From: a virus
Length of the DNA stretch: 64,000 bases
Reading direction: 5' to 3' (one strand)
IMG/VR virus record: IMGVR_UViG_3300037296_000220
Span: 1-64,000 of that record
Positions 3,493 through 62,844 of the stretch are shown here, piece after piece (the first letter of the stretch is position 1; each line of letters begins with the position of its first letter). The translations under genes were made by a program, and so were the position numbers. Below the pieces are notes generated by a model. That model searched no databases. It saw nothing but the letters and a program-made list of their open reading frames with translations, and was not told where the DNA came from.

Positions 3493-3521
3493 TTGCAGCT
3501 CTATGTAACACAGATTAAACT
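3493..3521 (+). promoter_or_regulatory. sigma70 promoter with CTATGTAACACAG operator in the spacer
   Basis: TTGCAG-17-TAAACT; operator at 3501-3513. Confidence 0.6.
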
Positions 3522-3554
3522 GACTAAATCATACAAACACACAAGGAAAGAAAC

Positions 3555-3803
3555 ATGGCCACCAGCGAAGCGCAACTCGCCTCCATCGATCGATACACCG
3601 CAAAGTACAAAGCGGCGGGCGTTCGTCGCCTGTCAATCGGCATGACTCAGGAACTCAGAGACAAACTGGATCCGATTTGTGAAGCCAAAGGTATCGTGCA
3701 CGATCGGGGCGCTCAGGTCGGAGAGCCCAACTACGTCAAGGCTCTGATTTTACTGGCTGAAGTGGCAATGGAAGCGGGCCTTGAGGGGCGCATCAAGAAC
3801 TGA
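3555..3803 (+). CDS. Small DNA-binding protein, ribbon-helix-helix-like repressor candidate
   Basis: RRLSIGMTQELRDKLDPIC strand-helix pattern; AAGGA RBS; operator in its own promoter. Confidence 0.55.
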   Translation: MATSEAQLASIDRYTAKYKAAGVRRLSIGMTQELRDKLDPICEAKGIVHDRGAQVGEPNYVKALILLAEVAMEAGLEGRIKN

Positions 3804-4389
3804 CTTTGGCTTCATACGCCACCTCGTCTTCTTTGCGCAGTGGCAGAACGTATCGGTAATAGCTTGACCGACTGATTTTGAACAAGCTCAGAACGTCCTC
3901 CACGGCTGTCTCAGGGTGTGCGTAGATGAAGTCCAGTATTGACCGGGCTTCATCCTTACTCATTGCCCTGGGGCGCCCTCCTACCCTTCCACGCGCCCTT
4001 GCCGCCTTCAGCCCTTCCTTTGTGCGCTCGCTGATCATGTCCGTCTCGAACTCAGAGAGGGCAGCTATCAGGTGAAAGAACAGTTTGCCCGCCGGCGACG
4101 AGGTATCAATGTCCTCTCGAATGCTGATTATATCAATTCCGCGAGTTTGATAGTTTTCGGCAATGGCAATCAGGTTGTGCATCGAGCGACCCAGGCGATC
4201 CAGCTTGAGCACAACCACCTGATCACCCCGGCGCAGATGATCGTTCATGGCCATAAACTGAGGGCGGTCGTTGTTGGTGCCAGTCAGTTTGTCGGTGAAG
4301 ACTTTCTCAGCACCGGCTTTGGCCAGGGCATCGAGCTGCATATCCAGGTTCTGTGACACGGTGGAGACCCGGGCATACCCAAATTTCAT
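3793..4389 (-). CDS. Serine resolvase/invertase
   Basis: GYARVST, KLDRLGRS, GRVGGRP and C-terminal HTH. Confidence 0.95.
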   Translation of the reverse strand: MKFGYARVSTVSQNLDMQLDALAKAGAEKVFTDKLTGTNNDRPQFMAMNDHLRRGDQVVVLKLDRLGRSMHNLIAIAENYQTRGIDIISIREDIDTSSPAGKLFFHLIAALSEFETDMISERTKEGLKAARARGRVGGRPRAMSKDEARSILDFIYAHPETAVEDVLSLFKISRSSYYRYVLPLRKEDEVAYEAKVSS

Positions 4390-4703
4390 TGATTAGCTCC
4401 GAACAAGGCTTTCAACAGGTCGTTCGAGAAGTCCCTCATTTGCTCCTGCAGGGCACCCTGGGCGCTGAACCACCCTTCATTATTGACCAGGGGCAAATCA
4501 ATAGCCTCCCCATCCCACCCTTCGTCAGCTATCTCATAGGGCTGACGGCCGCTCATACGCTGCTCAAACAGGTCGCGTACCCGATCCATATCGAGGAACA
4601 TCATGAAGAATCGCCGCTGCCCGTAGGTGACGATGGTAACGATGTGACCCGGCTTCTCTTGTAGGTCGGCCTCTATGTCCACCCAGCTCAATGTAGTTTG
4701 CAT
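4386..4703 (-). CDS. Hypothetical protein
   Basis: AGGAG RBS; coupled to the resolvase start. Confidence 0.6.
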   Translation of the reverse strand: MQTTLSWVDIEADLQEKPGHIVTIVTYGQRRFFMMFLDMDRVRDLFEQRMSGRQPYEIADEGWDGEAIDLPLVNNEGWFSAQGALQEQMRDFSNDLLKALFGANQ

Positions 4704-4717
4704 GCCTGTCTCCTGCT

Positions 4718-4853
4718 CGTCTCAAAAACGGTTTTTGATTATGAAACTGGATGGTAGCACTGAAACACGTTTTTGACACCGTAGCCATGCGGCCTGAGGC
4801 TCACCTTGAGAGACCGTCTTTTGACTGTCCCAGAAACGATCGTTTGTGACACG
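4718..4853. other. Probable res site
   Basis: Several imperfect inverted repeats of Tn3/Hin type (CGTCTCAAAAACGGTTTTTGA, CTGAAACACGTTTTTGACAC, GTCCCAGAAACGATCGTTTGTGACACG) upstream of the resolvase operon. Confidence 0.6.
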
Positions 4854-4942
4854 ACTGCCTATAGCCGTATTTGACAAAAGTCAGTCGATGTATTACATTT
4901 GTATTACTTCATTCACAGCGAACGCCAAGAGGGCACTACATA

Positions 4943-5206
4943 ATGATGAAGTTGCAAACCAAGCTGCGAAAGTCAGGCAATGCTCAGGTGATTCCTGTGC
5001 CGGCTGCCGCATTAACCGAATTGGGCGTGGAATTGGGTACGGAGTTCACGATGGTTGTCAGCAATGGAAAAATTGAACTTGAGAAGGTCAAACGTCGTTT
5101 GACTGAAGAGGAATTTTTTAAACGGTTGGCAACGGCGGACTTGAGCATTCCAGAGGACACTCGCATCTTTGAGGAAGCGCCCCCTGTTGGAAGAGAGGTA
5201 ATTTAA
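4943..5206 (+). CDS. mazE: AbrB/MazE-family antitoxin
   Basis: KLRKSGNAQVIPVP AbrB signature, directly upstream of a MazF-like toxin. Confidence 0.85.
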   Translation: MMKLQTKLRKSGNAQVIPVPAAALTELGVELGTEFTMVVSNGKIELEKVKRRLTEEEFFKRLATADLSIPEDTRIFEEAPPVGREVI

Positions 5207-5207
5207 T

Positions 5208-5546
5208 TTGAGTCAATCGTACACACCGAAAAGAGGAGACATTGTTTGGATCAACTTTGACCCGAGTACCGGGATCGAAATCAGGAAGCGGAGACCAGCC
5301 CTAGTGGTTTCCGTGACTGCACTGCACCAATATGGATACGCTTTCGTGATTCCAATAACGTCGACCAGTAAAGACCCGGCTTTGTACCCACCCCTGGTGG
5401 GGTTGCGGACGGAAGGACAATTGATTCCGTTCCAATTGGATTCAGTGGATTGGGAAGCCAGGCAGATTGAGTACATTGAGAGCGCACCGGAGAGCCTGGT
5501 CGATGACTGCATCCATATTCTCAAGATGCTGATGAAGATACCGTAA
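5208..5546 (+). CDS. mazF: MazF/PemK endoribonuclease toxin
   Basis: PKRGDIVWINFDP, EIRKRRPALVVS and PITS motifs. Confidence 0.92.
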   Translation: MSQSYTPKRGDIVWINFDPSTGIEIRKRRPALVVSVTALHQYGYAFVIPITSTSKDPALYPPLVGLRTEGQLIPFQLDSVDWEARQIEYIESAPESLVDDCIHILKMLMKIP

Positions 5547-5550
5547 GTGA

Positions 5551-5922
5551 CTGGTGTACTTTGAGAACGCTTTAGCCCGCTAACTGCGGGCTTTTTATTG
5601 GGTGTACTTTGAGAACGCTCTTTAAAAGGTTCGTTTTGTCGAAGTTTTGACCCTTTGCTGGTTGTTTTTTGATCAAAATGAATGGTTTACCTAGAAGAAG
5701 TTAGAACATAGGTTATATACCTATGTTAAAAGAGTTAGAAAGTTAAAGAGTTAAGGGCTGAAAACCCTATATAAAACAAAGACTTACAATTGAAAGCGTT
5801 CTCAAAGTACACCAGTTCCGTTCCCGAAGTACCCCAAAAGCGTTCCCGAAGTACACCAGTTCCGTTCTTCAGGTACACCACCGGCGTTCTTGAAGTACAC
5901 CTCAGCGTTCTCAAAGTACACC
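5551..5922. repeat. Iteron-type replication origin
   Basis: Six direct repeats CGTTCYYVARGTACMCC starting at 5797, 5819, 5841, 5863, 5885 and 5906 (21-22 bp period); two inverted copies at 5551-5573 and 5601-5619; AT-rich tract between them; DnaA-box-like TTGTCCACA at 5968. Confidence 0.88.
5574..5597 (+). terminator. Intrinsic terminator of mazEF
   Basis: AGCCCGC-TAACT-GCGGGCT followed by a T run. Confidence 0.8.
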
Positions 5923-5930
5923 TCGTTCAA

Positions 5931-6836
5931 TCACTCTACAGGCTCTATACCGGGGTTCTCCCCAGGGTTGTCCACAGATTCTGTGGATTGTTTGGGGTAA
6001 AACGTGACGATCTCACGGTCTGAGATGGCGAAATTGTAGTCCAAAATGCCGTTCCCCTGTATCTGACGCAGTTCGAACCGGAACTTGCGTAAGCTGGCGG
6101 AGCCCACCTTGTCGAACAGTTTGGCCATGCCGATCGACCACTCCTTCTGGCGCCCACAATACTTTCGGGCAATCTCATACAGGCGGCGCTCGGTGCCCCG
6201 GGACAGGCGGAAATACTCCCGGTTGTAGGTGAGCACGTTCAGCTCGTTGATTGACTCCATGAACATGGTGTTGATCTTGATGTCCACGTACTCGATGGTG
6301 CTGGCCTCGGTCTCTTCCAGGTCAAACTCAAAGGAGCCGGTATCAATGATCGAGAAGATGGACAGTTTGCCCTTGCCGCGCTGGCCAGGGAGTTTCTTCT
6401 TCTGCATTTCGATCTGGGTACCCTGCAGGCGCAGCAGCGCTTTGCGGAACAGCTCATACTGCTTGCCGCCCTTCTTGCGGTTAGTGGCCTTCAGGAAGTG
6501 GTAGGTGTACACCCGCACCTTCTCGGTGGCCACAATGGAGCGCTCGTTGTGGGGAAGGTCTTTCTCGCCGGCGGACTTCACGCGCTGGTTGTAGTCTTCA
6601 ACGATCTGACTGATGGCGTAAAGCACCAGGTCTTTGTCGAAGATGGTGGCCCGGCCATACTTGCTCGGCACGATCTTCACGGAGATGTGATCGTTCTCCC
6701 ACTCGATGGTTCGGCTATCACTCTGCTTTGACAGGGCAAACATGGGAAATTCCATGCTGTCGCGCTCACCCTTGGTAGCAATGTCCCGGGTGGGCGGCTC
6801 GATCAACGGTAGTGTGAGCTGATTATCAGTCGCCAT
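5931..6836 (-). CDS. repA: Plasmid replication initiator (RepA/RPA family)
   Basis: MEFPMFALSK, GRATIFDKDLVLY and ERRLYEIARKYCG motifs; adjacent iterons. Confidence 0.9.
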   Translation of the reverse strand: MATDNQLTLPLIEPPTRDIATKGERDSMEFPMFALSKQSDSRTIEWENDHISVKIVPSKYGRATIFDKDLVLYAISQIVEDYNQRVKSAGEKDLPHNERSIVATEKVRVYTYHFLKATNRKKGGKQYELFRKALLRLQGTQIEMQKKKLPGQRGKGKLSIFSIIDTGSFEFDLEETEASTIEYVDIKINTMFMESINELNVLTYNREYFRLSRGTERRLYEIARKYCGRQKEWSIGMAKLFDKVGSASLRKFRFELRQIQGNGILDYNFAISDREIVTFYPKQSTESVDNPGENPGIEPVE

Positions 6837-6911
6837 GAAATTTCCTCTTGTTTCAAACAAACAACTATGTATGATAGTGTCTATCAAACGCACACAGACA
6901 GGTTACGCAAC

Positions 6912-7175
6912 ATGAGCCAAAAATACACCATTTACGGGATGCCAGGCTGCTCAGCCTGCACCGCAGCAAAGGCTGCTGTCGAACAGAAAAACGCCCCACA
7001 CGAATACATTGACGTAGTTGCCGCCAACTACACCGCTATCGCGCTCCAGGCTGAACTGGGCGGCATCAACACCCGCACTCTCCCTCAAATTGTTGTCACC
7101 GACGATGAAGGCGTTATGACTTATGTCGGCGGCCTCCCTGATCTGCGCGAGCATTTGAAAACTGTTTCCTTGTAA
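6912..7175 (+). CDS. Glutaredoxin
   Basis: CSAC active site and RTLPQI...YVGG. Confidence 0.88.
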   Translation: MSQKYTIYGMPGCSACTAAKAAVEQKNAPHEYIDVVAANYTAIALQAELGGINTRTLPQIVVTDDEGVMTYVGGLPDLREHLKTVSL

Positions 7176-7207
7176 GTAACCCCTCTGGCCTGTCTGAAAA
7201 GACATTT

Positions 7208-7232
7208 GGGCGGCTTCGGCCGCCCTTTTTTT
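7208..7232 (+). terminator. Intrinsic terminator
   Basis: GGGCGGC-TTCG-GCCGCCC-T7. Confidence 0.85.
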
Positions 7233-7244
7233 GGAGAATTGAAA

Positions 7245-7868
7245 ATGTGGCAAAGACTGTTGTTTGTCCTGCGCTTTTGGATGTTAAACCCGATGCAATC
7301 CCCGCTACCCATCCTGATTCTGATCGCTCTGCTGGTTATCTTGCCCCGCGGCTCCTGGGCTGATGAACGCTGTGAAGAGTTTGCTGCTCTGGAAGATGGC
7401 CAGTTCGCGGTCATGCAGCACGGCTACCAAGTCGGCCGCGAGCATAACCTGGGCTACACCATGGCGGCTCTGGCCCTGCAAGAGAGTGAGTCGGGCAAAT
7501 ACTTGGTCAACCTCAACGACCCCTCCTTCGGCCCCTGGCAAGTCACGGTGGGTAACATTGTGCACTTCCGCGGCGAAGGCCGTGAAGTCAGCGACTGGTC
7601 CCGGGATCGGATGATTGAACGCATGATGACCGACATTCGCTGGTCGGCTGAAACCGCGCTCCAGGTGCTCCTGTACTGGGACGACTATCACAACCGCACC
7701 GGCACCTATGAGTCACTGTCGGAATACTGGGTCAATCTGTGGGGCTCGTACAACGCAGGCATTTACTACTCAGGCACCACCGGCCGGGCCTACGCCGATG
7801 AAGTGCAGCGATTGGTTCGGAACTTGAGTTTGTGCAACGTGTTTGGCTACCTGGAGAGTGGAGTATGA
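7245..7868 (+). CDS. Lytic transglycosylase (SLT/lysozyme-like) with N-terminal hydrophobic segment
   Basis: ALALQES catalytic Glu motif, GPWQV and SYNAG motifs. Confidence 0.75.
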   Translation: MWQRLLFVLRFWMLNPMQSPLPILILIALLVILPRGSWADERCEEFAALEDGQFAVMQHGYQVGREHNLGYTMAALALQESESGKYLVNLNDPSFGPWQVTVGNIVHFRGEGREVSDWSRDRMIERMMTDIRWSAETALQVLLYWDDYHNRTGTYESLSEYWVNLWGSYNAGIYYSGTTGRAYADEVQRLVRNLSLCNVFGYLESGV

Positions 7869-8359
7869 GAATTTCAATGATTTGGGCACAGTCGTCCAAC
7901 GGTATCATCGGTGCCGGCGGCAAGTTGCCCTGGCACATTCCAGGCGATCTGGAGTTCTTCAAGGCGGCAACGCTGAACAAAGTCATCATCATGGGCCGCA
8001 AAACCCATCAAAGCATTGGCCGGGCTCTACCGGGCCGGTTCAACATCGTCGTAACGGGTGATGTGGCCTACGACGCCCCGGGTTGCCTCGTAGTTCACAC
8101 TGTCGATGACGCTCTGGCTGTTGCTCGGCGCCAGGCTACGTCGGAAGCGGTGTTCATCGGGGGCGAGAAGATATACGAAGCAGGTCTCAAACACGCTCAG
8201 AATCTCTACGTCACCCACATTCACCGCGAATACCAGGGCGACACATCGATTCCCGATCTGGATTGGGACGATTGGTGTGAAACCTGGTGCATCGAGGCCC
8301 CAGTAGGGCCAAATAGCATCCCGCACAGCTACCACTCTTACACAAGGAAGGTTCGATAA
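7865..8359 (+). CDS. folA: Dihydrofolate reductase
   Basis: LPWHIPGDL, IIMGRKT, LPGR, FIGG and GDT motifs. Confidence 0.95.
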   Translation: MRISMIWAQSSNGIIGAGGKLPWHIPGDLEFFKAATLNKVIIMGRKTHQSIGRALPGRFNIVVTGDVAYDAPGCLVVHTVDDALAVARRQATSEAVFIGGEKIYEAGLKHAQNLYVTHIHREYQGDTSIPDLDWDDWCETWCIEAPVGPNSIPHSYHSYTRKVR

Positions 8360-8390
8360 TGCAGGTGACATTCCCCAATTCCCAGACTGG

Positions 8391-8663
8391 ATGATCACAA
8401 CCGATCAGTTCAACTTCATCCTGGAACGTCGGATGGTCTACGGCCCAAACAGCAAGAACGCCGGCGATACCTATTGGAAGGCTGAATCGTTTCACCCCTC
8501 CCTGTGTGCCGCCATGCAGAAAATTGTGACCATTGGGACGCTTGCCGCGAGTGATGTGATCAGCGTTGAACAAGTCATCGAGTTCATGCAGCGGCAAGAG
8601 TCTCGTATCGCTGCTGTAGAGCGAAACACAGACGATCAGTGTGAAGCAGTTACTTCAATCTAA
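8391..8663 (+). CDS. Hypothetical phage protein (5' end possibly frameshifted)
   Basis: Co-directional ORF after DHFR; the coupled ATG at 8359 is out of frame. Confidence 0.55.
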   Translation: MITTDQFNFILERRMVYGPNSKNAGDTYWKAESFHPSLCAAMQKIVTIGTLAASDVISVEQVIEFMQRQESRIAAVERNTDDQCEAVTSI

Positions 8664-8839
8664 CGTCGCTTAGAGACGCGCTGTGCGCGTCTTTCCTCTT
8701 GTGTCAATTCATACACCATTCGCAAATGCAAACGGCGTCAAAAATCAAGACGCTAAAGTGTGAACTGCGTCACACACTAAAAGTCTACCAGGCCTCAAAA
8801 TCGATTGTTTGCACCGGGCAAATTTATTCAGAGGTTAAA

Positions 8840-9739
8840 ATGGCCAGAAAGCGTGCCGTCATCGATTTGAGCCCCTACCCAGGTTTATACGTCTCCGAAC
8901 CTTACCGGCGCATATCCGTTCACACCAGCGAAGACCTGATTCGGGGCATCGCTCGCCGGGTTCGTGGCCTGGTAAGAGTCGCCGACCTTAACGTCGAACA
9001 GATCGCCAAAGAGGTGAATGTCTCGATCGAGAAGATACGGGGTGTGCTCAATGTTCGCGAACCGGAGCCTTTCTGCACATCCTTTATGGTAAAGCTGCAC
9101 GAAATGATTTCCAATCGGGACACCTACTCACTACTGGACACCTGGGTTGGCCATGCTCATTCGCTGGACCTGGTCAGCCTCATGTTGACCAATACGCGCA
9201 AAGAGGACCTGCACAGGCTGCTGAACTTCATTACGGTTATCGGAGACAGCAGCGAGCTGCTGCACCCAGAGGATTTGATTTTCACGCCCCAGGTCGACTG
9301 GCGGGATTATCTGGATTCGGGCCGTGATGTCGAGGTGGCCGGCCAGGTGGTGGCCGCCAGAATTAAGGCGGTTCGGCAGACTATGGGTGTATCGAGAGCC
9401 CGGCTGGCCGACATGATTCACGTCTCCAAATCGACCATCCAGAAAATTGAGGAATACGAGCGTCGATGCCCCTTCTATCTGCTGACGATCATCGCACATG
9501 CCCTGGGCATTCCGAGACAGGCCTTCTGGAGCGCGGAGCCGTTTAATTCGCACCTGGTTTATTGCCTGAAAATGTACCAGCAGACCGACGACGTTGGTCG
9601 CAGCTCGATACGGTTAGCCGTTCAAATGGTGACGGCCGCCGCCAGAGGGCGGGAATTTCGGGTTACGGTCGAGGTAAAGGATCGGCGTAGCGGGGATTAT
9701 GAGGTGATGCGAATAGAGGACTATCAGGGGGTTGTGTGA
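8840..9739 (+). CDS. XRE-family HTH transcriptional regulator
   Basis: RIKAVRQTMGVSRARLADMIHVSKSTIQKIE HTH plus a second N-terminal HTH-like segment; GAGG RBS. Confidence 0.8.
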   Translation: MARKRAVIDLSPYPGLYVSEPYRRISVHTSEDLIRGIARRVRGLVRVADLNVEQIAKEVNVSIEKIRGVLNVREPEPFCTSFMVKLHEMISNRDTYSLLDTWVGHAHSLDLVSLMLTNTRKEDLHRLLNFITVIGDSSELLHPEDLIFTPQVDWRDYLDSGRDVEVAGQVVAARIKAVRQTMGVSRARLADMIHVSKSTIQKIEEYERRCPFYLLTIIAHALGIPRQAFWSAEPFNSHLVYCLKMYQQTDDVGRSSIRLAVQMVTAAARGREFRVTVEVKDRRSGDYEVMRIEDYQGVV

Positions 9740-9965
9740 TGTACACTGCTCGCGCTTAAACCTTCCTTCAGTTACCCGGTTCTCAGGTTTTGACCACTTG
9801 ATCACCCGCCGTGTTTGACAGGGCAGCAGGGTAGCGGCAGCGCGAGCATGTTTGCACCCGTCAGAGACGGTGTACCGGTGCGTTTGAGGAGAGAGAACCG
9901 CCCGTTTCAACAAGGTTCGATTATACCAAACTTAGTTGTTGGTGTGTATTGATAAATTTAAGCTA

Positions 9966-10274
9966 TCACAATTCCTCTTTTGCCCAGAAAAAGCCGCATA
10001 GCAGAAAGTAAGCAGAGACCAGGAACAGAACAACCCCAGCCAGGCACTTCGCGACCGTGAGAGTAATTGTGCCCAGGCCGGTCGCCGTCACCCAAATAAA
10101 GCCCTCTGTGCCCACAAAGGTGAGAAACAGCACAACGGCCGCGAGCACCATTACAGCGAGCAGAGCAAGCCCCATGATGACCACAACCGCCAGAGGCATG
10201 AAGATCAGTCCGTAGTAGAGCCCGGTAATGACCTGTTTGATCACCGGGTGCCCGTCAGTCATACAGAATTTCAT
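9966..10274 (-). CDS. Hypothetical membrane protein
   Basis: Strongly hydrophobic ORF at the end of an operon. Confidence 0.6.
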   Translation of the reverse strand: MKFCMTDGHPVIKQVITGLYYGLIFMPLAVVVIMGLALLAVMVLAAVVLFLTFVGTEGFIWVTATGLGTITLTVAKCLAGVVLFLVSAYFLLCGFFWAKEEL

Positions 10275-10406
10275 AAGTCTTCCATCATCTTGCTGTAGAA
10301 AATCGCCTCACCCAGCGTCGCGAAGTCCCGGGACTTGAACAGTCTGCCCCAGAACCCGCGATACACTAGAACCCAACACCCGGGGCTTTCCGGGTGATAC
10401 AGCCAC

Positions 10407-12002: not shown

Positions 12003-12479
12003 GGTCTCTCCTGTTGCTTAGTTAGTTGTTTGTGTGAGCGTTCATAGTAGTGTTTTGCATCTGGCGAGTCTACTGCGGGGTTCGAGTGCCCGTGTGCGTG
12101 CCGGGTGAGCGCGGAGCGCGACTCCCGTCTCGTTGGGTGGGCTGTTGCGGAGTTTCGGCCTTGCCAGCGTTTGCTCAGGCGTCCTTGCCCGTCATCCCCG
12201 TGTGTTTGCGTGGGGTGTCCCTTGCGTCGCTCCTGCGGCCTTACAGGGCGTCCTGGCGGCAGAGCCCGAATTGAAGCCCTGCTGCCCTGCCCTCAGTGCC
12301 CGAAATGTGGCACTTCCAGCGTTTGCACCTTCCATTTCCTACCTGTCCCGGGGTGTGGACGATGTGGTGCGGTTTGGTTGCACGTTGCTGCGGGTATTGG
12401 TTGTTGTGAATGTAGCGGTAATACGGGTATTGAGTGTTTCGGCTCCGGCAAGTTGGCACCGCCCGGGCCACGCAGCATT

Positions 12480-12522
12480 AGCAGTTTCTAAGATGATAAC
12501 GATTATCATATTAGAAACTGCT
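12480..12522. repeat. 43-bp palindrome with Fur-box-like core
   Basis: AGCAGTTTCTAA-G-ATGATAA-CGA-TTATCAT-A-TTAGAAACTGCT. Confidence 0.85.
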
Positions 12523-12538
12523 GTATTAGTGCGTTGCA

Positions 12539-12560
12539 GAGCGCGCACTAATGCGCGCTC
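12539..12560 (-). terminator. Hairpin downstream of 12571..13116
   Basis: Perfect 9-bp stem GAGCGCGCA-CTAA-TGCGCGCTC; no clear U-tract. Confidence 0.5.
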
Positions 12561-12570
12561 ATTGTTGCAC

Positions 12571-13116
12571 TTAGTCGAACAGTGCAATCATTCGCTTGTA
12601 CAATGCTGAATCAGTCTTAAAAGTCATTGTCTGCGTAGACTTCTCATAATCAGCGACATCTAAGAACAAGCAGAAGCGTTTGAAGTAGTTCGCTTGTGTA
12701 TTCGTCTCGTGACTCATAGCGCGCTGTAAAGCGTCGATGCTGATAGATTCAGCATTGTTTACGACGATGACTGTCAGAGCGTTCAGTAATGCTTTATCGA
12801 GCTTGTTCTTGTCAGTCGCAGCAATCGCGTTCAGCGCGCTCATAAGACGCTTTTTCAATTCACGCGACTGATTAACAATTGATTCAGCGTTCAGCTTGAA
12901 CGTGTAGCACACTGCTAGTGCGTCACTGCTCAGCTCTGACAGTTTGCTGTCGTATTTAGCGTGCGTCGCAGAGCGCTGTTGAGCGCGCTTCACGTCTGTG
13001 TCTTTAGTCTCTTCGTACTGACTAGCGAACTGCTCAGAGCGTGTCAGATTGTCACTAGCAGACTGTGACACAGTAGCAGAGAAAGAAGAGATAAAATCAG
13101 TCTTTTTAATAGTCAT
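12571..13116 (-). CDS. Hypothetical Gly/Pro/Trp-free protein, possible C-terminal winged helix
   Basis: AGGA RBS and near-consensus promoter upstream; weak by-eye similarity to the C-terminal half of 28293..29051. Confidence 0.8.
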   Translation of the reverse strand: MTIKKTDFISSFSATVSQSASDNLTRSEQFASQYEETKDTDVKRAQQRSATHAKYDSKLSELSSDALAVCYTFKLNAESIVNQSRELKKRLMSALNAIAATDKNKLDKALLNALTVIVVNNAESISIDALQRAMSHETNTQANYFKRFCLFLDVADYEKSTQTMTFKTDSALYKRMIALFD

Positions 13117-13191
13117 GATAAGTCATCCTAAAACAGTGCAAGTGTGCGACTTGCTTCGCGTTGATTCGCTGCGTTGCGATTCAATAAGTTC

Positions 13192-13220
13192 ATAATAAAG
13201 TCTATGTCGCACACTGTCAA
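13192..13220 (-). promoter_or_regulatory. Strong sigma70 promoter with operator variant in the spacer
   Basis: TTGACA-17-TATTAT; CTATGTCGCACAC at 13202-13214. Confidence 0.8.
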
Positions 13221-13284
13221 ACAAAGTTGTAAGTTTGTTTATATCGCTTTCGCATAGAACGCACGTTCTATATCGGTTTATGTT

Positions 13285-13324
13285 CTATGTAACATAGTGA
13301 CTTTATTAATAGAAAGCGTACTAT
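13285..13324 (+). promoter_or_regulatory. Operator plus promoter of 13359..13652
   Basis: CTATGTAACATAG (13285-13297) abutting GTGACT-16-TACTAT. Confidence 0.6.
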
Positions 13325-13358
13325 ATACGTACACACACAAACGAAAGCGAGTCACATA

Positions 13359-13652
13359 ATGAAAGCTCTTGAGATTGTACGCACTGAACGCGCAGACAAA
13401 GCAGCACGCTACACAGTGCGCGCTATCGTGCGCGACTCTAACAGCGCTCTGAAAGTCGCAACGTTCAATGCACGCATTGCGCAAGATTCCAACTATCACT
13501 TGACCAGCTTCGTTTACAGCGAGTCGCGAAAGCTCCGCGCTATCGCTAAAGCATTCGATCAAGACCGCTTGAACGATTTTTTGATGACTGTTGAACAGTT
13601 GCTTTTTAGAGCGTACCGCTCAGACACTGAACGACAATTGTCCGCATTCTGA
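13359..13652 (+). CDS. Hypothetical Gly/Pro/Trp-free basic protein
   Basis: AGCGAG RBS-like site, own promoter, downstream hairpin at 13673-13709. Confidence 0.7.
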   Translation: MKALEIVRTERADKAARYTVRAIVRDSNSALKVATFNARIAQDSNYHLTSFVYSESRKLRAIAKAFDQDRLNDFLMTVEQLLFRAYRSDTERQLSAF

Positions 13653-13707: not shown

Positions 13708-13736
13708 TTGACCTAAAAGTCTATGTGACATAGAAT
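13708..13736 (+). promoter_or_regulatory. Strong sigma70 promoter overlapped by operator
   Basis: TTGACC-17-TAGAAT; CTATGTGACATAG at 13721-13733. Confidence 0.75.
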
Positions 13737-14120
13737 AGCTTTATTGAATCAGAGCGAGATTGAAATCAGCCAAAAACCGAATTTTGACAAGTCACCACGG
13801 CACGCACGCAACCGCGAGTGAAAACCGCTCCTGCGCCGCATTCCTGGCCATTCCCGTTTCCGCTCGCCGTTTCGAGGCCGCGGCACTACCACCCTTATTA
13901 CTTCGGTGCCTTATACCTATAGCCGCTCCTATAGGAAAAACCCGCGGCTCCCCGCCCTATGGCGTACCTTGGGCCGTTTCCTATGGCGGCCCCTATAGGA
14001 AAACCCCAGGCCGTTCCCTATGGCCGCTTACTGGCAAACCATGGTGTCCCGGGTGCACTGAACCCATGGGCTCACCACGGCTGCAGATCCCCTTGGCCCC
14101 ACCAGGGCTTTTCTTCAGGC

Positions 14121-14145
14121 AAAAAGAAACCCGCACTGAGCGGGT
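14121..14145 (-). terminator. Intrinsic terminator
   Basis: ACCCGC-TCAGT-GCGGGT-TTCTTTTT on the minus strand. Confidence 0.8.
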
Positions 14146-14362
14146 CAAAGGTTTTTAGGATGTCTTTCTGATTACGCCCGCACAGACCTGGTACCGCGCC
14201 CGGAACAAAGGTCAGTTTGGTCAGTGCTCGATGCAGGGCCGATAAGCGAGAGAACCGGCCTTACTGAGCGTCCACACAACACTTGAACACCTGGCTGTCT
14301 GATAACCCTATCTGAGTCGAATCAATCCAGCGTGTCTGCTCTGTTAGTCTGTGCGAGCGATG
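14121..14362 (-). ncRNA. Putative structured non-coding RNA
   Basis: -10 TATACT at 14369-14374; 14-bp closing stem 14346-14359/14175-14188; internal hairpins; no AUG; terminator at 14121-14145. Confidence 0.6.
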
Positions 14363-14638: not shown

Positions 14639-14839
14639 TTAGCGTGATTGACGTGCTGCGCGTATCAGTCGAGCAATCTCATCCTGGTACGCTTGTTGAG
14701 CGGGGCTCAAAGTGGGCTTGTAGCGATTGTACTGCTTGGGCTTGTTCTTAGGTGGCAGCACTGTGGTCAGTGGAAACTGCTCAGCCTGTTGTTGCAGGTC
14801 TTCGTGGATCTCATTGCGTGTGTTGGGACCGATGGACAT
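14639..14839 (-). CDS. Small hypothetical protein (paralog of 15405..15587)
   Basis: Shared NTRN, TVLPPKxKPK and TLSPAQQxYQDE motifs. Confidence 0.8.
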   Translation of the reverse strand: MSIGPNTRNEIHEDLQQQAEQFPLTTVLPPKNKPKQYNRYKPTLSPAQQAYQDEIARLIRAARQSR

Positions 14840-15404: not shown

Positions 15405-15587
15405 TTACTTCAGACGCTTCAGTTCATCCTGGTACGACTGCTGAGCGGGGCTCAGTGTTGCGGTGTATGTGCTGCGCACTTTCGGCTTTTTCTTAGGTGG
15501 CAGCACAGTGATCTGACCGCCCCAGTTGCTGCTCTGCTGCTCTATAGCGTCGTGTTCTGCGTTGCGTGTGTTTTGCATGATGCTCAT
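15405..15587 (-). CDS. Small hypothetical protein (paralog of 14639..14839)
   Basis: Same motifs as its paralog; own CCACAG-type promoter. Confidence 0.8.
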   Translation of the reverse strand: MSIMQNTRNAEHDAIEQQSSNWGGQITVLPPKKKPKVRSTYTATLSPAQQSYQDELKRLK

Positions 15588-15899
15588 AGTGGTATCTCGC
15601 TGTGCGCGCTCTCAGAGCGCTTGTGTGTGATGTCTCAATCGACAGACACATGATGACAAGCGCTGAGAGGCGTCTCTACTGTGGCAACTGGCGAGCCAGA
15701 CAGCAGCCGCGGGAGCGCCAAGGGACACCACGGGGAGGCACAGCCGCGGTATGACCATGGCTCCCCGTGGTTCACCAGACGCCGCGGCACTCCCACGGCG
15801 GCACCGCTGTTTAAAAATGGCAGTGCACATCACGGCACTGCCATTCTCACCTAATCTACCCAGCCCCTCATACCTATGGCGGTCCCTATAGGAAATCCA

Positions 15900-19066: not shown

Positions 19067-19069
19067 AGG

Positions 19070-19827: not shown

Positions 19828-19832
19828 GGTGT

Positions 19833-23095: not shown

Positions 23096-23404
23096 TCACA
23101 AGAGCTTTGCCAGCTCTGCTCTGTGCTTGTTAATGAGTGCATTTAATTCTCGCCCCTGCCGCTCGATCACACTTTGGCTTTTGGTTCTCAGGTTAGCGGG
23201 AGGGTTTGCTTGCAGATCAATGGTGAAGGTCATGCCCTCTAACTGCTGATCCCAGTTTTCAATGTTCTGTACATCCGGTGGTCGCGTATCAACCGGCGTC
23301 GTACTTTGGCCACAACCACACCCCGGGTATCGATGACAGCCCATATAACCAAACGGCCCTATGTCCGCTGTGCATTCGCCGTCATCTTCATCAAATCCAA
23401 ACAT
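23096..23404 (-). CDS. Hypothetical protein
   Basis: ORF downstream of the operator copy at 23476-23488. Confidence 0.5.
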   Translation of the reverse strand: MFGFDEDDGECTADIGPFGYMGCHRYPGCGCGQSTTPVDTRPPDVQNIENWDQQLEGMTFTIDLQANPPANLRTKSQSVIERQGRELNALINKHRAELAKLL

Positions 23405-23657
23405 GCCATTCCCCCATTGGTTGACAGTCTAAATAAAAAAGTCGTCCACCTTGTATTAAACCAATATCAACCGGCCTATGTTACATACTTTTAGAGCCAT
23501 TTCTAAGGCCCTGATGGCACACAGCTTAGTGTGAAATCAGGGCCTATCTTGAGTGCAAAACAGTGGTCTTTAAGATGGTGCTAAGTGATATATACCGTTA
23601 TCGACCGCGAAAGATTTGTGTGACAAAATACGGTATGGCGGTTTGAAAAAATCGCAA

Positions 23658-57739: not shown

Positions 57740-57742
57740 TTG

Positions 57743-57801
57743 ACCTGTTGGCGCGCCAACACTGGGTTTATATACAGTGTTGGCGGCTTTGGGTGCCAAC
57801 A
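57743..57801. other. Candidate parS centromere
   Basis: Perfect palindrome TGTTGGCGCGCCAACA at 57746-57761, identical copy at 55928-55943, split copy at 57778-57801. Confidence 0.7.
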
Positions 57802-58000
57802 GGGTTAAATTTTCGGAGCGGCGCAAGACGAAGTGGGATAACGGTATAACTACCTAGGCTAAGTCGATGTTGGGCAGAATGTCGATTCGGATAAGCTGCT
57901 GAGTGCGTCTGAGTGATCGCAGAACGAACGGGGAGGGGTAGAGTAGGGCGAGTGTACTGCCCTTGAAGCTGCGTCGCTCACAAGGGCTTACAGAGAGTCT

Positions 58001-58495
58001 TTAGTGAGTGGCTTCAAACGCCAAATCGACTGCTGATTGGTGGACATAAATCATGTCCCGAACGTCGAAGTAAGGCATCTGAATGCCGCGACGGTATTTT
58101 TTGTAGTACCCATAGACTCGCTTACCCAAACCGGGCGCCAACGCTGAGTCGCAGATATTGTAGATCGTCCCATCGGCATGCGCCAGGATCACTATGCAAT
58201 CCAAACCCACGTTCAAAAGTTCTTCTTCCAGCTCAGGCGTTTCCGCGAAATCTTCAATACGATAGTCGAACCGGGTAGTGCGACCTGACAGTTCTTCCCT
58301 TAGATTTAGAAAGCCGCCGTCGGTGTCGAGTGTTGCCTGGATGGTCAATTCCCCAGCTTCCCGACGCTGACCTGACAGGTGGTCCTGCACAATGATGATC
58401 GGATGGCCTGAGTTGAACAGGAACAGAAAGCCGTTCGGATCGAAGGGTAGCTTCTGGCCAATGTCGAATGTGGTTTCTTTCATGATGATTCTCAT
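58001..58495 (-). CDS. Hypothetical protein
   Basis: Stand-alone ORF. Confidence 0.6.
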   Translation of the reverse strand: MRIIMKETTFDIGQKLPFDPNGFLFLFNSGHPIIIVQDHLSGQRREAGELTIQATLDTDGGFLNLREELSGRTTRFDYRIEDFAETPELEEELLNVGLDCIVILAHADGTIYNICDSALAPGLGKRVYGYYKKYRRGIQMPYFDVRDMIYVHQSAVDLAFEATH

Positions 58496-58562
58496 ATTTG
58501 TCTGTTGTGGGTAGTGTCTCAGATTGCTGCATTAAAACAATACGGCAAACGGGACTACCTAC

Positions 58563-59177
58563 TCATAGCCAGGACTCAAGCAAAGTATGCTGGTCTTCAG
58601 TCAGTTCATCGAGCAGTTGGCCCACCTGGTCGACATAAGGCTGAAAGTCCTGGTGCGTTAACGTCTCAACCTTTTTATCCACCTGGGGCAGTGCGGCCGG
58701 CTGTTCATCCTTCAGGCGCCAGAATAGAAGAGGGCACTTGAAGTGGGGGACCGACTTCTTGATCAGCACGAAGCCCAGTTTGGTCTTGTAAGTCATGGTC
58801 GCTTCGCTGCGGGACAAAGTCAGCACCTGGTTCATTGGGATGCGTTCGATGGCACAGTAGAGTAGGGCGCGTGCCTCAATTACATCGAGCTGTTTCAGCA
58901 GTTCAACCAATTGAAAGGTGGTGACGCGATGACGATTGAGCCGGGGCTTCAGGATGGTAGCTTGCTGCATCTTGCCAAACAGAAAGGCGCGATCCAGTTC
59001 TTCCATTAGAGAATGAAAGGCGGTCTCAGTATCTGGGCGTCCGATGTGGTTTTCGAGCGTCTGAGTGCCCATCAACAGTATGATGGGCGTCAGTTGCTCC
59101 AGGTCTTTGTTCCAAATGGGCGTTTGTTGGTAAGCTGCAGCGGGGTAATCCGCTGCGATTAGATCCGATAGTTTCAT
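58563..59177 (-). CDS. Hypothetical protein
   Basis: AGGAGG RBS. Confidence 0.7.
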   Translation of the reverse strand: MKLSDLIAADYPAAAYQQTPIWNKDLEQLTPIILLMGTQTLENHIGRPDTETAFHSLMEELDRAFLFGKMQQATILKPRLNRHRVTTFQLVELLKQLDVIEARALLYCAIERIPMNQVLTLSRSEATMTYKTKLGFVLIKKSVPHFKCPLLFWRLKDEQPAALPQVDKKVETLTHQDFQPYVDQVGQLLDELTEDQHTLLESWL

Positions 59178-59219
59178 AAACCCTCCTTTTTGAGCAGGAG
59201 CTTATGCTATCTAGGAGGT

Positions 59220-59903
59220 TCAGTCCAATGGAACAATGCCTACGTCGAGCAAATGGTCGTAACCCAGGGCGGCGCCTTCCTTCCTGTAAATGTGTTCGCT
59301 ACCTGGTGGGACTTCAGAACTGAAGTGGTAGATCCGATTGTCGGCCCCCGTGTGTGACACGATGGGGCGGTCATCACTCGCTGTGCCCAAATGCCAACTG
59401 TACGCGAACTCCCCCTCTTGCTTAATGGCCTCCAGCAGCCGCACCGTGTCTGCTTTGGGCAGTTCGAGGGTTCGTTCACCAATCTCAATGAGTCGATCAG
59501 CCAGACGCTGCACGATCGTGTCCGGTGTCGTTCTCATGTAGATTGCGCGCCACTCAAACTTGCCCCGTCGCGCTTGCTCGATCCAGTTGTTGACCCCGGC
59601 CAGATTCAAGGCCATCACCGGCAGCTTGTTCTGCTTCCAGATTTCATGAATCTGGTCCCAGGTGACGCCATAGCTGTAGCCGTTGTGATCGTCTTCCTCC
59701 GCAAGCTGACCGGTGCGACGCATCAGATCGAAGGTGGCCTGGTCAACGAACAGGTGTTCATCGTCACTCTCGCTCCGTTTGGGTCGAGTGGTGAGCGACT
59801 GCACCTTCGCCATGTCGTTAGGCCAGGCTTCGACCAGAATGTTGATCAGCGTAGACTTGCCGGACCCCGAAGGGCCGGCAACCATGAGAATGGCTTTGAT
59901 CAT
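59220..59903 (-). CDS. Guanylate kinase-like protein
   Basis: GPSGSGKST, TTRPKR and NGYSYG motifs. Confidence 0.85.
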   Translation of the reverse strand: MIKAILMVAGPSGSGKSTLINILVEAWPNDMAKVQSLTTRPKRSESDDEHLFVDQATFDLMRRTGQLAEEDDHNGYSYGVTWDQIHEIWKQNKLPVMALNLAGVNNWIEQARRGKFEWRAIYMRTTPDTIVQRLADRLIEIGERTLELPKADTVRLLEAIKQEGEFAYSWHLGTASDDRPIVSHTGADNRIYHFSSEVPPGSEHIYRKEGAALGYDHLLDVGIVPLD

Positions 59904-61255
59904 ACGCCCACTCCATCTTCAGGACGTTTCTCGTCTACGGCATAGGGGCCTGAGCGAAAGCGGCTGAAACGGGGGTGACGCAAACTGCCATCAGGGGTCT
60001 CTTCATGAAATTCGACCTCAATCAGCCAACCTTTGCATCCATCCGGGTCACCTAGATTGAAATAGCCGCGTATCTGATCGGTTAAGCCAGAGACTTTGAC
60101 AGCAACCCCTTTGTAATCGACAACGACTGCGCCGACCAGGCCCACGTTTTTACCGGTGCCCTCCTCAAGGCCAATGATGGGCACGTCCACCGTCTGGCGG
60201 TCTTTAATCTTCAACCAGTCAGTTGTGCGTTTATTGTGCCACTTGCCAGCCAAAGGCTTGATGATCACCCCTTCACCACCGCGATTGCGAACAGACTGGT
60301 AGATGCCTTCAATCTCAGCCGGGTTGCTGCACAGGTAGCGCTGAGCTACTGAGATATTGGCACAGGCGGTGGGCGCTTTCGGATCGAACAGGCCTTGCAG
60401 GCGTTTGCGACGCTGAACGTAATCTCCTTTGGTGGCGCCAGCTTTCATTTCAGCTTCGGTGATGATGTCGAACGCCTGGAAGAACACCTTGTCGGTGGAG
60501 TCCTTGCGATGCACAGCGCCCACTACCGTATTGAAGTTGTCGGAGGTCAGTTCGCCATCGAGGTAGAAGGATGAATTGAAGGTGTGACCCTTCAACTGCT
60601 CGATCACTTCAGTACCGGCGTTCAACGGCTTGCCGGTACGACTGTAGAAAATGGCATCAACGTCAGGCTGAATGTGAATCAGACAGCGCACACCGTCGAA
60701 CTTCTCTTCAACTGCTACGGGGTATCCCTTGATCTTGTGGCCGTGTTTCTCATACGACTGAGCAAGCTGCACCGTGAAGTCGTCAAACAGCCCTGGGAAC
60801 GCTTTGAGCGTCGATGAACGGTTGACCCCGATGCGCAGGTCGCGAGACAGAACCCGGCGCACTACGTCCCAGATCGGCTTTGACTCCTGATACTGAGTGA
60901 GTGACACAGCCAGTGTCTTGACGGCCATTGTAGCGGCGCCACCGGTCAGGCGACGTTCTTCAAGGTGACCAAGCAGCTCCAGAATTTCGTCCGCTTCCAG
61001 ATCCGGGTCCGGGTCCACGTCAACCAGGTCGGCTTCAGACCATTCAAGCTGACGGATGTAGTAGTTGCGAAAGGGGTTGTACGTCAGGTCAAAGACGATC
61101 CGCAACAGATCGTCTTCCTGATGCTGGCTCAGCAGCGCGACCTTCTGTTTGCCTGTGGCTTCAGCCACCTGGTCGAGTATCGCGTGAACACGCTTCCAGT
61201 CGGAAAAGCCAAAGGTGAGAGCCAGGCTTATAGGTGCAGTTTCTTGTACGGTCAT
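59900..61255 (-). CDS. ATP-dependent DNA ligase
   Basis: EEKFDGVR, LDGEL, EGVIIK, WLKIK and SLRHPRF motifs. Confidence 0.95.
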   Translation of the reverse strand: MTVQETAPISLALTFGFSDWKRVHAILDQVAEATGKQKVALLSQHQEDDLLRIVFDLTYNPFRNYYIRQLEWSEADLVDVDPDPDLEADEILELLGHLEERRLTGGAATMAVKTLAVSLTQYQESKPIWDVVRRVLSRDLRIGVNRSSTLKAFPGLFDDFTVQLAQSYEKHGHKIKGYPVAVEEKFDGVRCLIHIQPDVDAIFYSRTGKPLNAGTEVIEQLKGHTFNSSFYLDGELTSDNFNTVVGAVHRKDSTDKVFFQAFDIITEAEMKAGATKGDYVQRRKRLQGLFDPKAPTACANISVAQRYLCSNPAEIEGIYQSVRNRGGEGVIIKPLAGKWHNKRTTDWLKIKDRQTVDVPIIGLEEGTGKNVGLVGAVVVDYKGVAVKVSGLTDQIRGYFNLGDPDGCKGWLIEVEFHEETPDGSLRHPRFSRFRSGPYAVDEKRPEDGVGV

Positions 61256-61264
61256 GAGTGATTC

Positions 61265-61750
61265 CTACAGTTGGGTAGCTTCAATGATTTGAGCCGGGTT
61301 GAATTGAGTCAGTTCTGACTTCTTGTCAGTCTTGGTTGTTTGTTTGTTTTGAGTGGGTTTAGTCGGCTTAGAGCCGCTGATGAACGGCTTGGCATTCCAG
61401 CCACGCTGATACCCTTCGGACTGGGTGTCGACGTTGCGACGGTCCTCTTCCAAACGTTTGTCTTCCAGGGTAGGTCGGGCCTGAGCTTCGACATGCACAT
61501 AGGGCACATAGTAGAGAGCCTTGCCCGCTTTTTTCTCTTCCCGAAGCATGCCTATGGCAGGGCATGACCGGTCTTTGATGCAGCCCTGGCAATCCTTAAA
61601 GCGATCCGGGCCCAGCAAAGTCTCTCCGTTGACGGTTTTGCGCAGGCTGAGGCTGATTACATTCAGGCAGACTGCATAGGCGGCGCCCGGTCGTTTGGTT
61701 GGTTCGCAGTTGATGCGGTGTGTGTTGTCCGCGCTTTTACTTAGGTGCAT
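61265..61750 (-). CDS. Hypothetical Cys-containing protein
   Basis: TGATG coupling; YAVC...C..CI...CPA pattern. Confidence 0.7.
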   Translation of the reverse strand: MHLSKSADNTHRINCEPTKRPGAAYAVCLNVISLSLRKTVNGETLLGPDRFKDCQGCIKDRSCPAIGMLREEKKAGKALYYVPYVHVEAQARPTLEDKRLEEDRRNVDTQSEGYQRGWNAKPFISGSKPTKPTQNKQTTKTDKKSELTQFNPAQIIEATQL

Positions 61751-62283
61751 CAGAAAATCCCCCAGTTGTTATAGGTTGGTTGTGGTGTGACTTCCCCTGG
61801 CAACTTTCGCTTGGGTGCGGTCGGTTGGATGTAGCATTCGCTAATTACTTTTATAAAATTCACCTTGTAGCGGGATGGCAACTCGTAAGAATGCTTAGTG
61901 GCAAAAGCCTTACCAAACATAGAGAGTTCACTCAGGCCATCGCCGCGCCATTTATTGGAAGTATCTTTCTCATGAGGTATAGCCAGATGAAGAACCCTCC
62001 AGGCCCAGTCTATAAATGACGACTCTTCTACCTTACGAGTTGCCACCGGTGATTCATTAAAGCCGTAACGAGTAGCCAAATTGCGACGCAGCGTAAACAG
62101 GTCATGGGGCATGTCTCTGCGACCCACGCCAATCAGCTCAGTTATGCCGTCCTCGCGTCTAAGTAGTTCCATGTAAAAGGACTCCTTGACACCTGGCTCT
62201 GCGTTCAGTTTCTCACCTGCGGCCTGAACATAGCGAAATCCCCCTTTTTGAAACACGCAGTAGTTGCCCGAGTACAGAGCCAT
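61750..62283 (-). CDS. Hypothetical protein ending WGIF
   Basis: TGATG coupling. Confidence 0.65.
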   Translation of the reverse strand: MALYSGNYCVFQKGGFRYVQAAGEKLNAEPGVKESFYMELLRREDGITELIGVGRRDMPHDLFTLRRNLATRYGFNESPVATRKVEESSFIDWAWRVLHLAIPHEKDTSNKWRGDGLSELSMFGKAFATKHSYELPSRYKVNFIKVISECYIQPTAPKRKLPGEVTPQPTYNNWGIF

Positions 62284-62774
62284 CAGAACATACCCCAGTC
62301 GCTGTATTTTTCCGAAGGCCGTTTGGGTATCGGGTCGTTGTTGACGATGAATCCTTCAGGTGGTTCAACGCTATCGTCTTGGTGGAAGGCGCCATTCCCT
62401 AAAATGACACCATTGCGAAACTGTTGTTCAACCTTTCTAAGGATGTCGTCGCTCGCGGCAAATCTTGTGGTATTGAACAGAAGCGCGTTCACCACTGGCC
62501 TAATGTCAGTATCGAAAACGTTGTCAGTATCGACAATGTGATAGCCCTTTTTCCGCTTTTTCTCGATGATTCTTTCAGCTTCAGCCAGGTTGTCCAAATT
62601 CCAGGCGGCAACTATTCGCTGAGTTACGGGCGACTTGCCATTGCGACCAGAGAAACAAACGCTCAACGACTTGTCTTTGCCCTCCATCGTGATGTTGGTC
62701 ACGACGTAATACTTGTCAGAGCTACCTTCGGTGCAATTTAGCAAAGTGCTATGTGCCTGAATCTTCTTGGTCAT
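62283..62774 (-). CDS. WGR-like domain protein ending WGMF
   Basis: GSSDKYY...GRNG...KKRKKGY pattern. Confidence 0.72.
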   Translation of the reverse strand: MTKKIQAHSTLLNCTEGSSDKYYVVTNITMEGKDKSLSVCFSGRNGKSPVTQRIVAAWNLDNLAEAERIIEKKRKKGYHIVDTDNVFDTDIRPVVNALLFNTTRFAASDDILRKVEQQFRNGVILGNGAFHQDDSVEPPEGFIVNNDPIPKRPSEKYSDWGMF

Positions 62775-62844
62775 GATGTTCTCGCTTTCTTAAGTCTATG
62801 TTACATATTTTACGCTAAACGTTCTGAATGTCACTGAAGGGACG

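Follow-up and report, generated by a model that had tools for sequence, protein, structure and literature searches.

The question raised by the DNA described here is why one 13-base palindrome, CTATGTnACATAG, recurs at promoters scattered over a single viral genome, and which protein would recognize it. The stretch analyzed, hereafter the window, comprises positions 1 to 64,000 of the IMG/VR virus record IMGVR_UViG_3300037296_000220. The full record extends over 102,534 bp, with a direct terminal repeat of 127 bp and 100% completeness by CheckV, and therefore represents a complete circular genome. The first-pass annotation of the window placed copies of the palindrome at 3501, 13202, 13285, 13721, 23476 and 62796, all of them correctly, and proposed that a small ribbon-helix-helix (RHH)-like protein encoded at 3555..3803 uses these copies to shut off a burst of anti-defense genes upon entry into the cell. 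Instead, as judged from the sequence and its relatives, we consider it rather likely that CTATGTnACATAG is an operator at which a repressor specific to this element turns off the early and lytic promoters of a phage-plasmid.

As to the palindrome itself, seven copies with at most one mismatch are found in the whole genome, versus 0.03-0.07 expected from simulations of Markov order 1 and order 3, while in the window nine matches with at most two mismatches compare with 1.28 expected, none of 100 shuffles producing as many. The word also ranks first in a de novo census of all palindromes of the 6-N(0-4)-6 form. Six of the seven sites are fully intergenic, in a genome with a coding fraction of about 94% (based on crude gene calls). 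Three of the copies (13285, 13721 and 99726) are perfect and four (3501, 23476, 62796 and 99888) have one mismatch, and the 13202 copy combines one good half-site, AAGTCTATGT, with three mismatches in the other half. Of the four genomic occurrences of this 10-mer, three are at palindrome sites, in agreement with the earlier remark that three sites are preceded by AAGT. A short, over-represented, dyad-symmetric word concentrated in intergenic DNA is what is expected of a repressor operator, and the motif is real, non-random, promoter-associated and operator-like, in support of the earlier annotation to this extent. The copies, including two weaker variants, are the following:

3501..3513, copy with one mismatch, CTATGTAACACAG, in the 17-nucleotide spacer between TTGCAG (3493-3498) and TAAACT (3516-3521), 17 nucleotides past the helicase stop codon and directly upstream of the 82-amino-acid open reading frame (ORF)
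13202..13214, degenerate copy, the AAGTCTATGT half good and the other poor, in the spacer of a leftward promoter
13285..13297, perfect copy, CTATGTAACATAG, upstream of the 97-amino-acid gene and abutting GTGACT-16-TACTAT (8/12), 83 bp (center-to-center) from the 13202 site
13721..13733, perfect copy, CTATGTGACATAG, over the spacer and the -10 of the promoter starting at 13708
23476..23488, copy with one mismatch, 72 nucleotides upstream of the gene at 23096-23404, heading a leftward block of small unknown genes
62796..62808, copy with one mismatch, beginning inside a -10 hexamer (2-nucleotide overlap) and spanning the expected transcription start, 22 nucleotides before the ATG at 62774
99726 and 99888, copies beyond the window, 162 bp apart, in the 267-bp gap upstream of terS and terminase
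1731..1743, weak variant, GTATTTAACATAG, with two mismatches and the proximal half intact, in the helicase promoter region, of uncertain status
6865, another weaker variant

A pattern scan of IMG/VR with the exact motif returned 20 matches, all single-copy and at about chance level, and no multiplicity was seen in the five large contigs with the motif that were checked. The sequence of the palindrome was not found in the literature searched, and we know of no gammaproteobacterial LexA, CRP or Fur consensus that it matches.

The copies are associated with promoters, recognized here as consensus matches. Only four fully intergenic sigma70-like promoters with a score of at least 10/12 are present in the whole genome, and three of them are overlapped by a site:

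13192..13220, minus strand, TTGACA-17-TATTAT (11/12, the strongest), driving the gene at 12571-13116, with the 13202 site in its spacer
13708..13736, plus strand, TTGACC-17-TAGAAT (10/12), covered by the 13721 site
62807..62834, minus strand, GTGACA-16-TAAAAT (10/12), with the 62796 site over the end of the -10 and the start site

The earlier claim that five of the six sites in the window lie at a recognizable sigma70 promoter holds in part: overlap with a core promoter is clear at 13202, 13721 and 62796, and weaker at 3501, 13285 and 23476 (the latter with TAGAAA-16-TAACAT), where the candidate promoters score just 8/12, below the threshold of the tool. The position of the site with respect to the -35 and -10 hexamers varies, from upstream of the -35 to +1. 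A location in the spacer, at the -10 or at +1 is typical of repressor sites. Together with the fact that promoters close to consensus do not require activators, the variable site position favors a repressor operator over a promoter element. The genes and regions found under the sites are these:

12571..13116, minus strand, 181-amino-acid winged-helix protein, heading the leftward operon downstream of the 13192 promoter
13359..13652, plus strand, 97-amino-acid orphan gene, downstream of the 13285 operator
13737..14150, plus strand, candidate for a non-coding transcript or region, holding the iteron-like repeats CCTATGGCGGyCCCTATAGGAAA as well as hairpins of terminator type at 14091-14146
23096..23404, minus strand, 102-amino-acid unknown protein, the first gene downstream of the 23476 operator
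62283..62774, minus strand, 163-amino-acid weakly WGR-like protein, the first gene of the operon behind the 62807 promoter
59900-61255, same operon, ATP-dependent DNA ligase
59220-59903, same operon, guanylate-kinase-like protein
outside the window, terS/terminase operon, with sites 99726 and 99888 in its upstream gap

As to the nature of the element, the genome is that of a circular phage-plasmid. On the plasmid side it encodes a RepA of the RPA family, a ParA of type Ia and its partner ParB, a serine resolvase and MazEF, and on the phage side a lytic complement of the siphovirus kind, with DnaE, ribonucleotide reductase, SbcCD, a VWA protein resembling CobT, DNA ligase and both terminase subunits (large and small). 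Besides the ParA-linked ParB, it encodes two more ParB_N proteins (136-879 and 1002-1685). The best matches of DnaE, among them Pseudomonas phage nickie, the SSU5-like phage-plasmids of Klebsiella, and Cupriavidus, Acinetobacter and Aeromonas plasmids of about 108 kb, reach just 38-43% identity, thus placing the element in a poorly sampled lineage of phage-plasmids. Searches of phage and plasmid collections with the region, the 82-amino-acid ORF, the XRE-type protein considered below and the 181-amino-acid protein revealed no close relatives.

More distant relatives, however, could be recruited. An alignment of the 181-amino-acid protein retrieved a chromosomal locus of Halomonas, metagenome contigs, and eight IMG/VR contigs of 48-111 kb, and four essentially complete genomes (CheckV 95-100%), G007, G008, G009 and G012, were compared in full; the assembly of the Halomonas locus, L027, is full of frameshifts, and only the palindromes upstream were used. 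A structural and replication core, at 25-68% amino-acid identity, is common to the four genomes, and they confirm circular synteny across the contig ends. None of the four possesses CTATGTnACATAG with at most one mismatch, or homologs of the 82-amino-acid ORF or of the XRE protein, or any Pfam RHH_1 or bona fide HTH_3 protein. The motif and the 82-amino-acid gene, whose co-conservation the first-pass annotation suggested looking for in related genomes, are thus both absent from the four, and at least two of them keep the layout with other palindromes. One example is G012, in which all four copies of a TTTACGCGTAAA-like palindrome are found at two places, two upstream of the homolog of the 181-amino-acid gene and two upstream of terS. 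Another example is G008, with a AAATGAGAA-N-TTCTCATTT palindrome represented by about five copies upstream of the former gene and by one copy upstream of terS. In the Halomonas locus and in L030, CGTGAC-NN-GTCACG is found at the promoter of the 181-amino-acid homolog. In G007, two copies of CGCTTGCAATGAA precede this homolog, just a 9-mer being common with the terS-upstream region, and in G009 no 9-mer is common to the winged-helix-upstream and terS-upstream regions. Two control points with an element-specific operator word are shared by the genome described here and at least two of the four relatives. The pattern is suggestive of an immunity-type network, with operator and repressor diverging together, as in heteroimmune phages, the maintenance of two control points while the operator word changes being the signature of immunity specificity.

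The same comparison bears on the nature of the binder. Since at least two of the four relatives have the same layout with other palindromes and no homolog of the 82-amino-acid ORF, the binder should be element-specific. The recognition helices of TerS and of a 121-amino-acid winged-helix-like protein encoded next to it are nearly identical in G007, G008 and G009 despite the differing operator words, and the predicted recognition helix of the 181-amino-acid protein, TQANYFK, is invariant across the phage-plasmid family. Because conserved DNA-binding proteins do not co-vary with operator words, the binder should be an accessory, fast-evolving protein, and these three proteins, whose recognition helices remain constant while the words differ between relatives, are unlikely as specific binders. 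Two candidates of the accessory kind are encoded in the window:

3555..3803, plus strand, 82-amino-acid ORF, candidate RHH-like autorepressor, with the Shine-Dalgarno sequence AAGGAAAG
8840..9739, plus strand, 299-amino-acid XRE-type helix-turn-helix protein with an HTH_3/HTH_31 domain, the sole Pfam HTH_3 protein in the genome

The 82-amino-acid ORF has an operator copy in the spacer of its own promoter, TTGCAG-17-TAAACT, and negative autoregulation would be implied by this position. To this extent the earlier proposal of an autorepressor is supported. An exhaustive HMMER search revealed a single homolog, P0002, which is 65% identical, with the changes S27T and G29A in the presumed beta-strand, and is encoded on a Logan contig of 14.8 kb; a word-indexed search returned only the ORF itself, and the 82-amino-acid alignment found no match in IMG/VR, metagenomes or GTDB genomes. 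The ORF is an accessory gene, not found in the four relatives. Two helices predicted by AlphaFold2 (AF2), at residues 32-44 and 58-73, fit the two helices of the RHH fold, although the model is a poor one. We regard this protein as the foremost, if tentative, candidate for the binder of the palindrome. Something unrecognized appears rather unlikely in this role, the XRE protein is a still more doubtful candidate, and a host factor is very improbable.

The mechanism that we propose is as follows. A dimeric DNA-binding repressor of the phage-plasmid would bind CTATGTnACATAG, with the half-sites extending to AAGTCTATGT, and the occupied operators would block RNA polymerase at the host-sigma70-type promoters that head several operons. 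Subject to this control would be the winged-helix gene at 12571-13116, the 97-amino-acid gene and the promoter firing into the iteron-like region, as well as the block of small genes at 23.4 kb, the operon of the WGR-like protein and ligase, and the terS/terminase upstream region. The circuit would hold early and lytic functions off as long as the element is in its plasmid (lysogenic) state, and the same circuit would shut them off after an initial burst on entry. A burst followed by shut-off is compatible with this mechanism, as a kinetic consequence of any negatively autoregulated circuit entering a naive cell. The regulon as originally drawn consisted of the two genes near 13 kb, the WGR-like operon and 23096..23404; sites are indeed found there, but also at the operon for DNA ligase and nucleotide kinase, of which the WGR-like gene is the first, and upstream of terS and terminase. 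Because the regulon takes in the ligase/kinase operon and the terminase region, general repression of early and lytic promoters fits better than an anti-defense burst.

A number of observations weigh against this proposal, or against the 82-amino-acid protein as its agent. Three of the promoter assignments, those scoring 8/12, are weak, and no convincing promoter could be drawn at 99726. With each site oriented to the gene that follows it, a purine occupies the central position in nine of nine (the seven sites, 13202 and 1731; post hoc, roughly p=0.004), and the promoter-proximal half, ACATAG, is the better conserved, being kept in eight of the nine. A purely symmetric operator does not predict such asymmetry, which may stem from -10-like hexamers (for example, TAACAT) that overlap the sites, or from contacts that are themselves asymmetric. 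The ESM Atlas neighbors of the 82-amino-acid ORF are of the RHH_1/CopG/RepB-RCR_reg types (language-model features 0.90-0.92, structure template modeling score 0.5-0.59), a lead toward the earlier RHH-like assignment, but Atlas scores of 0.9 are also reached by 4-10% of shuffled proteins. The assignment fares worse elsewhere: no match to Pfam RHH_1 (PF01402) is found by hmmscan at E<=10, nor in a six-frame search of the genome at the same threshold, no sequence match to the protein is found in PDB, and its single-sequence AF2 model is poor (predicted local distance difference test, pLDDT, 55), with no strand predicted in 22-29. Finally, a protein of an unrecognized class may be the binder across the whole family, the genome described here included, because at least two relatives keep the layout without a homolog of the 82-amino-acid ORF, an RHH_1 protein or a bona fide XRE protein.

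These points lead to the possibility, which we rate as rather unlikely, that the operator function is real but is exercised by another element-specific protein, such as the 299-amino-acid XRE protein or an unrecognized small protein, in which case the 82-amino-acid ORF would itself belong to the regulated genes, for instance as an accessory in plasmid copy-number control or resolution. The genome encodes no Pfam-supported specific DNA-binding regulator other than the XRE protein, which is accessory like the motif; no homolog of the 82-amino-acid ORF is present in the relatives that show the same layout; the Atlas neighbors of this ORF include plasmid copy regulators of the RepB/CopB type, and it is located within a plasmid-maintenance block (helicase, resolvase, MazEF, RepA). 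However, the region upstream of the XRE gene contains no full operator, only a partial half-site, AAAAGTCTAcc, and a CRP-like box, and as a bona fide XRE protein is likewise missing from the relatives, the comparison does not favor it over the 82-amino-acid ORF. The recruitment of a host global regulator is the least credible of the readings considered. Precedents exist in GIL01-type plasmid prophages, for which host LexA serves as the prophage repressor, and no recognizable CI/LexA-like repressor or S24 peptidase is encoded here, but the other words found at homologous positions in the relatives point to element-specific recognition.

The entry-burst interpretation, in which anti-restriction or anti-CRISPR-type genes are shut off by the 82-amino-acid protein in the manner of Aca or ArdK, we judge improbable. 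Strong promoters, apparent negative autoregulation, the presence of two regulated genes in a 1-kb stretch nearly free of CC/GG, suggesting unusual selection, and the many small orphans among the regulated genes would all agree with it. On the other hand, no anti-defense homology is found in Pfam or PHROGs for any gene of the regulon, many of which are orphans, the regulon extends to DNA metabolism (the ligase/kinase operon) and to the terS-upstream region, and the conserved regulated gene encodes a winged-helix DNA-binding protein. A burst is thus compatible as a kinetic by-product, not as the purpose of the circuit. It is highly improbable, in turn, that the palindrome functions directionally, as a promoter or activator element (an activator site or a phage-specific class of promoter). 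In favor of this are the central purine and the conserved proximal half, described above; the center of the 13285 site is near -40 of the GTGACT-16-TACTAT candidate, and good -35 hexamers are missing at both 99726 and 13285; but the variable placement of the sites argues against it, as do the best-matched promoters, which are near consensus and should not need an activator, and no phage RNA polymerase or sigma factor is found among the scanned ORFs.

A few other roles for the palindrome were considered and rejected. A centromere of the true (ParA-linked) ParB is one, as a different parS cluster is present at 57746-57800. An RNA element is another, with no Rfam match and with sites in part upstream of the predicted starts. 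Likewise, an N4-type hairpin promoter (5-bp stem, 3-nucleotide loop) was rejected, with no giant virion RNA polymerase and with site positions that vary relative to promoters, as was a resolvase or invertase site, the sites being scattered at promoters and their spacing being odd, while resolvases and invertases use an even 2-bp core. The parS-like cluster, just downstream of parB, contains a perfect 16-bp palindrome, TGTTGGCGCGCCAACA, and two CGCCAACA/TGTTGGCG arms. A separate inverted repeat, TCTCACT-N22-AGTGAGA (1693-1730), is located between the helicase gene and the divergently oriented ParB-like gene (1002-1685), and may represent an independent operator. Upstream of the XRE gene (ATG at 8840), a perfect CRP-type box, TGTGA-N6-TCACA, is found at 8759-8774, after a terminator-like hairpin at 8664-8695.

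With the preferred reading of an element-specific repressor, the arrangement invites comparison with known systems. In phage-plasmid P1, one repressor, C1, acting at 22 dispersed operators, holds down RepL of the vegetative replicon and the late activator Lpa (PMC8546580). The element described here is likewise a phage-plasmid with dispersed operators on several operons, including the iteron-region promoter and the conserved winged-helix gene. In contrast, the 22 P1 operators are asymmetric 17-bp sequences (ATTGCTCTAATAAATTT), versus 7-9 symmetric 13-bp palindromes here, and P1 possesses the large C1 with its partners Coi and Lxc, versus a candidate 82-amino-acid RHH-like protein here. No homology to P1 proteins was seen, and no C1-like protein was found in the Pfam/PHROG scans, in which C1 was not searched for specifically. 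Another example is KorA/KorB of the IncP plasmids, which act at 12-13 bp palindromes at many strong promoters of one replicon, in coordinated repression after establishment. Repeated palindromes at strong promoters and the presence of ParB-family proteins are common features, but here the parS of the true ParB is a separate one, core promoters are overlapped by most of the operators, and no KorA or KorB homolog was identified. The small RHH proteins CopG (pMV158) and Arc/Mnt (P22 immI) act on short pseudo-palindromic operators over a strong promoter and are autoregulated, Arc shutting off Pant after a burst; unlike the set of sites described here, these control one promoter rather than a genome-wide set, and the RHH nature of the 82-amino-acid ORF is not established by hidden Markov models. 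The combination of a strong promoter, a palindromic operator and a small autorepressor also recalls the Aca and ArdK autorepressors, and the operator in the promoter of the ORF itself is present at the sequence level; unlike in those systems, no known anti-defense gene is found beside any operator, and replication and virion functions are part of the regulon.

Some of the genes in question deserve further description. The 181-amino-acid protein has 14 homologs and belongs to no Pfam family. An AF2 model built on the homolog alignment (pLDDT 94.8) shows an N-terminal helical hairpin and a C-terminal winged helix, and the nearest structures are those of TubR (Z 8.3, root-mean-square deviation 2.1 over 74 residues) and of SarA/MarR-type regulators; such middling Z values indicate a predicted fold, not a function. 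The protein would be a regulated target and possibly a downstream regulator. Its gene and the 97-amino-acid gene, for whose product no DNA-binding lead was found, are both spanned by a desert of CC/GG dinucleotides at 12470-13488 (2 CC/GG in 1019 bp at 44% GC, versus a genome mean of about 39 per 300 bp). In the relatives, the 181-amino-acid homologs contain very few Gly, Pro or Trp, and their DNA, by eye, few CC/GG steps. To the right of the desert, the 13708 promoter fires into about 400 bp with no plausible ORF, and 13737-14150, with no match in Rfam, is a probable non-coding transcript or region. Iteron-like repeats are seen at 13900-14030, downstream of this operator-bearing promoter, and at 15866-15890, and the region may be an origin activated by transcription. 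In the Halomonas relative, different iterons, GGTTGCGGGCTTACCTCA, in four to five copies, occupy the equivalent place beside the winged-helix gene (L027 9260-9400). Two paralogous small ORFs of 66 and 60 amino acids, similar in sequence and with GT-rich leaders, are located on the minus strand at 14639-14839 and 15405-15587, in the otherwise ORF-poor 13.7-15.9 kb stretch.

The terminase region and the leaders of many genes present further features. The 121-amino-acid winged-helix-like protein (genome 99895-100260, L002 15895-16260), with a weak match to HrcA_DNA-bdg (E 0.016), is kept in each of the four relatives, immediately before the intergenic region of terS, and the 99888 operator copy overlaps the stop codon of its gene. 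Twin AT-rich elements are found upstream of terS (genome 99741-99834) and upstream of the gene at 65361-66062 (66147-66233, L001 2147-2233), bounded by GACTCACA and TGTGA(C/G)T, then ATCGACGTAGT, the palindrome flanking the terS copy only. A strand-polar leader motif, CACACAAACAACTAAGTGAG, precedes many genes on the coding strand (for example, at 1697-1716, 12022-12036, 34479, 37523 and 46308), and very abundant polar palindromes are found right after -10-like hexamers in G007 (AACTAAC-NN-GTTAGTT, 24 copies) and in G012 (GTAAGT-N4-ACTTAC(TTAC), 30 copies). Such strand-polar leader motifs are probably a family-wide class of promoter or 5'-leader, distinct from the CTATGTnACATAG operator.

For the plasmid/lytic switch in SSU5-like and other DnaE-encoding phage-plasmids, the literature consulted gives just "putative repressor" annotations (PMC9928086). 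The genome described here offers a compact, testable circuit built from a single 13-bp word, a few strong promoters and two possible binders. More speculatively, and with a probability that we regard as rather low, a new family of phage-plasmids of about 100-110 kb might use fast-diverging pairs of palindromic operators and small repressors as determinants of heteroimmunity. In the present case the repressor would be the 82-amino-acid protein, as an unusual RHH, and the pair would gate three conserved nodes at once: the winged-helix protein with its invariant recognition helix, as a candidate master lytic activator like P1 Lpa, the iteron-region transcript, as a candidate lytic origin, and the terminase operon. 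If confirmed, the immunity-type circuit would provide a handle for predicting superinfection-immunity groups and induction behavior in these elements.

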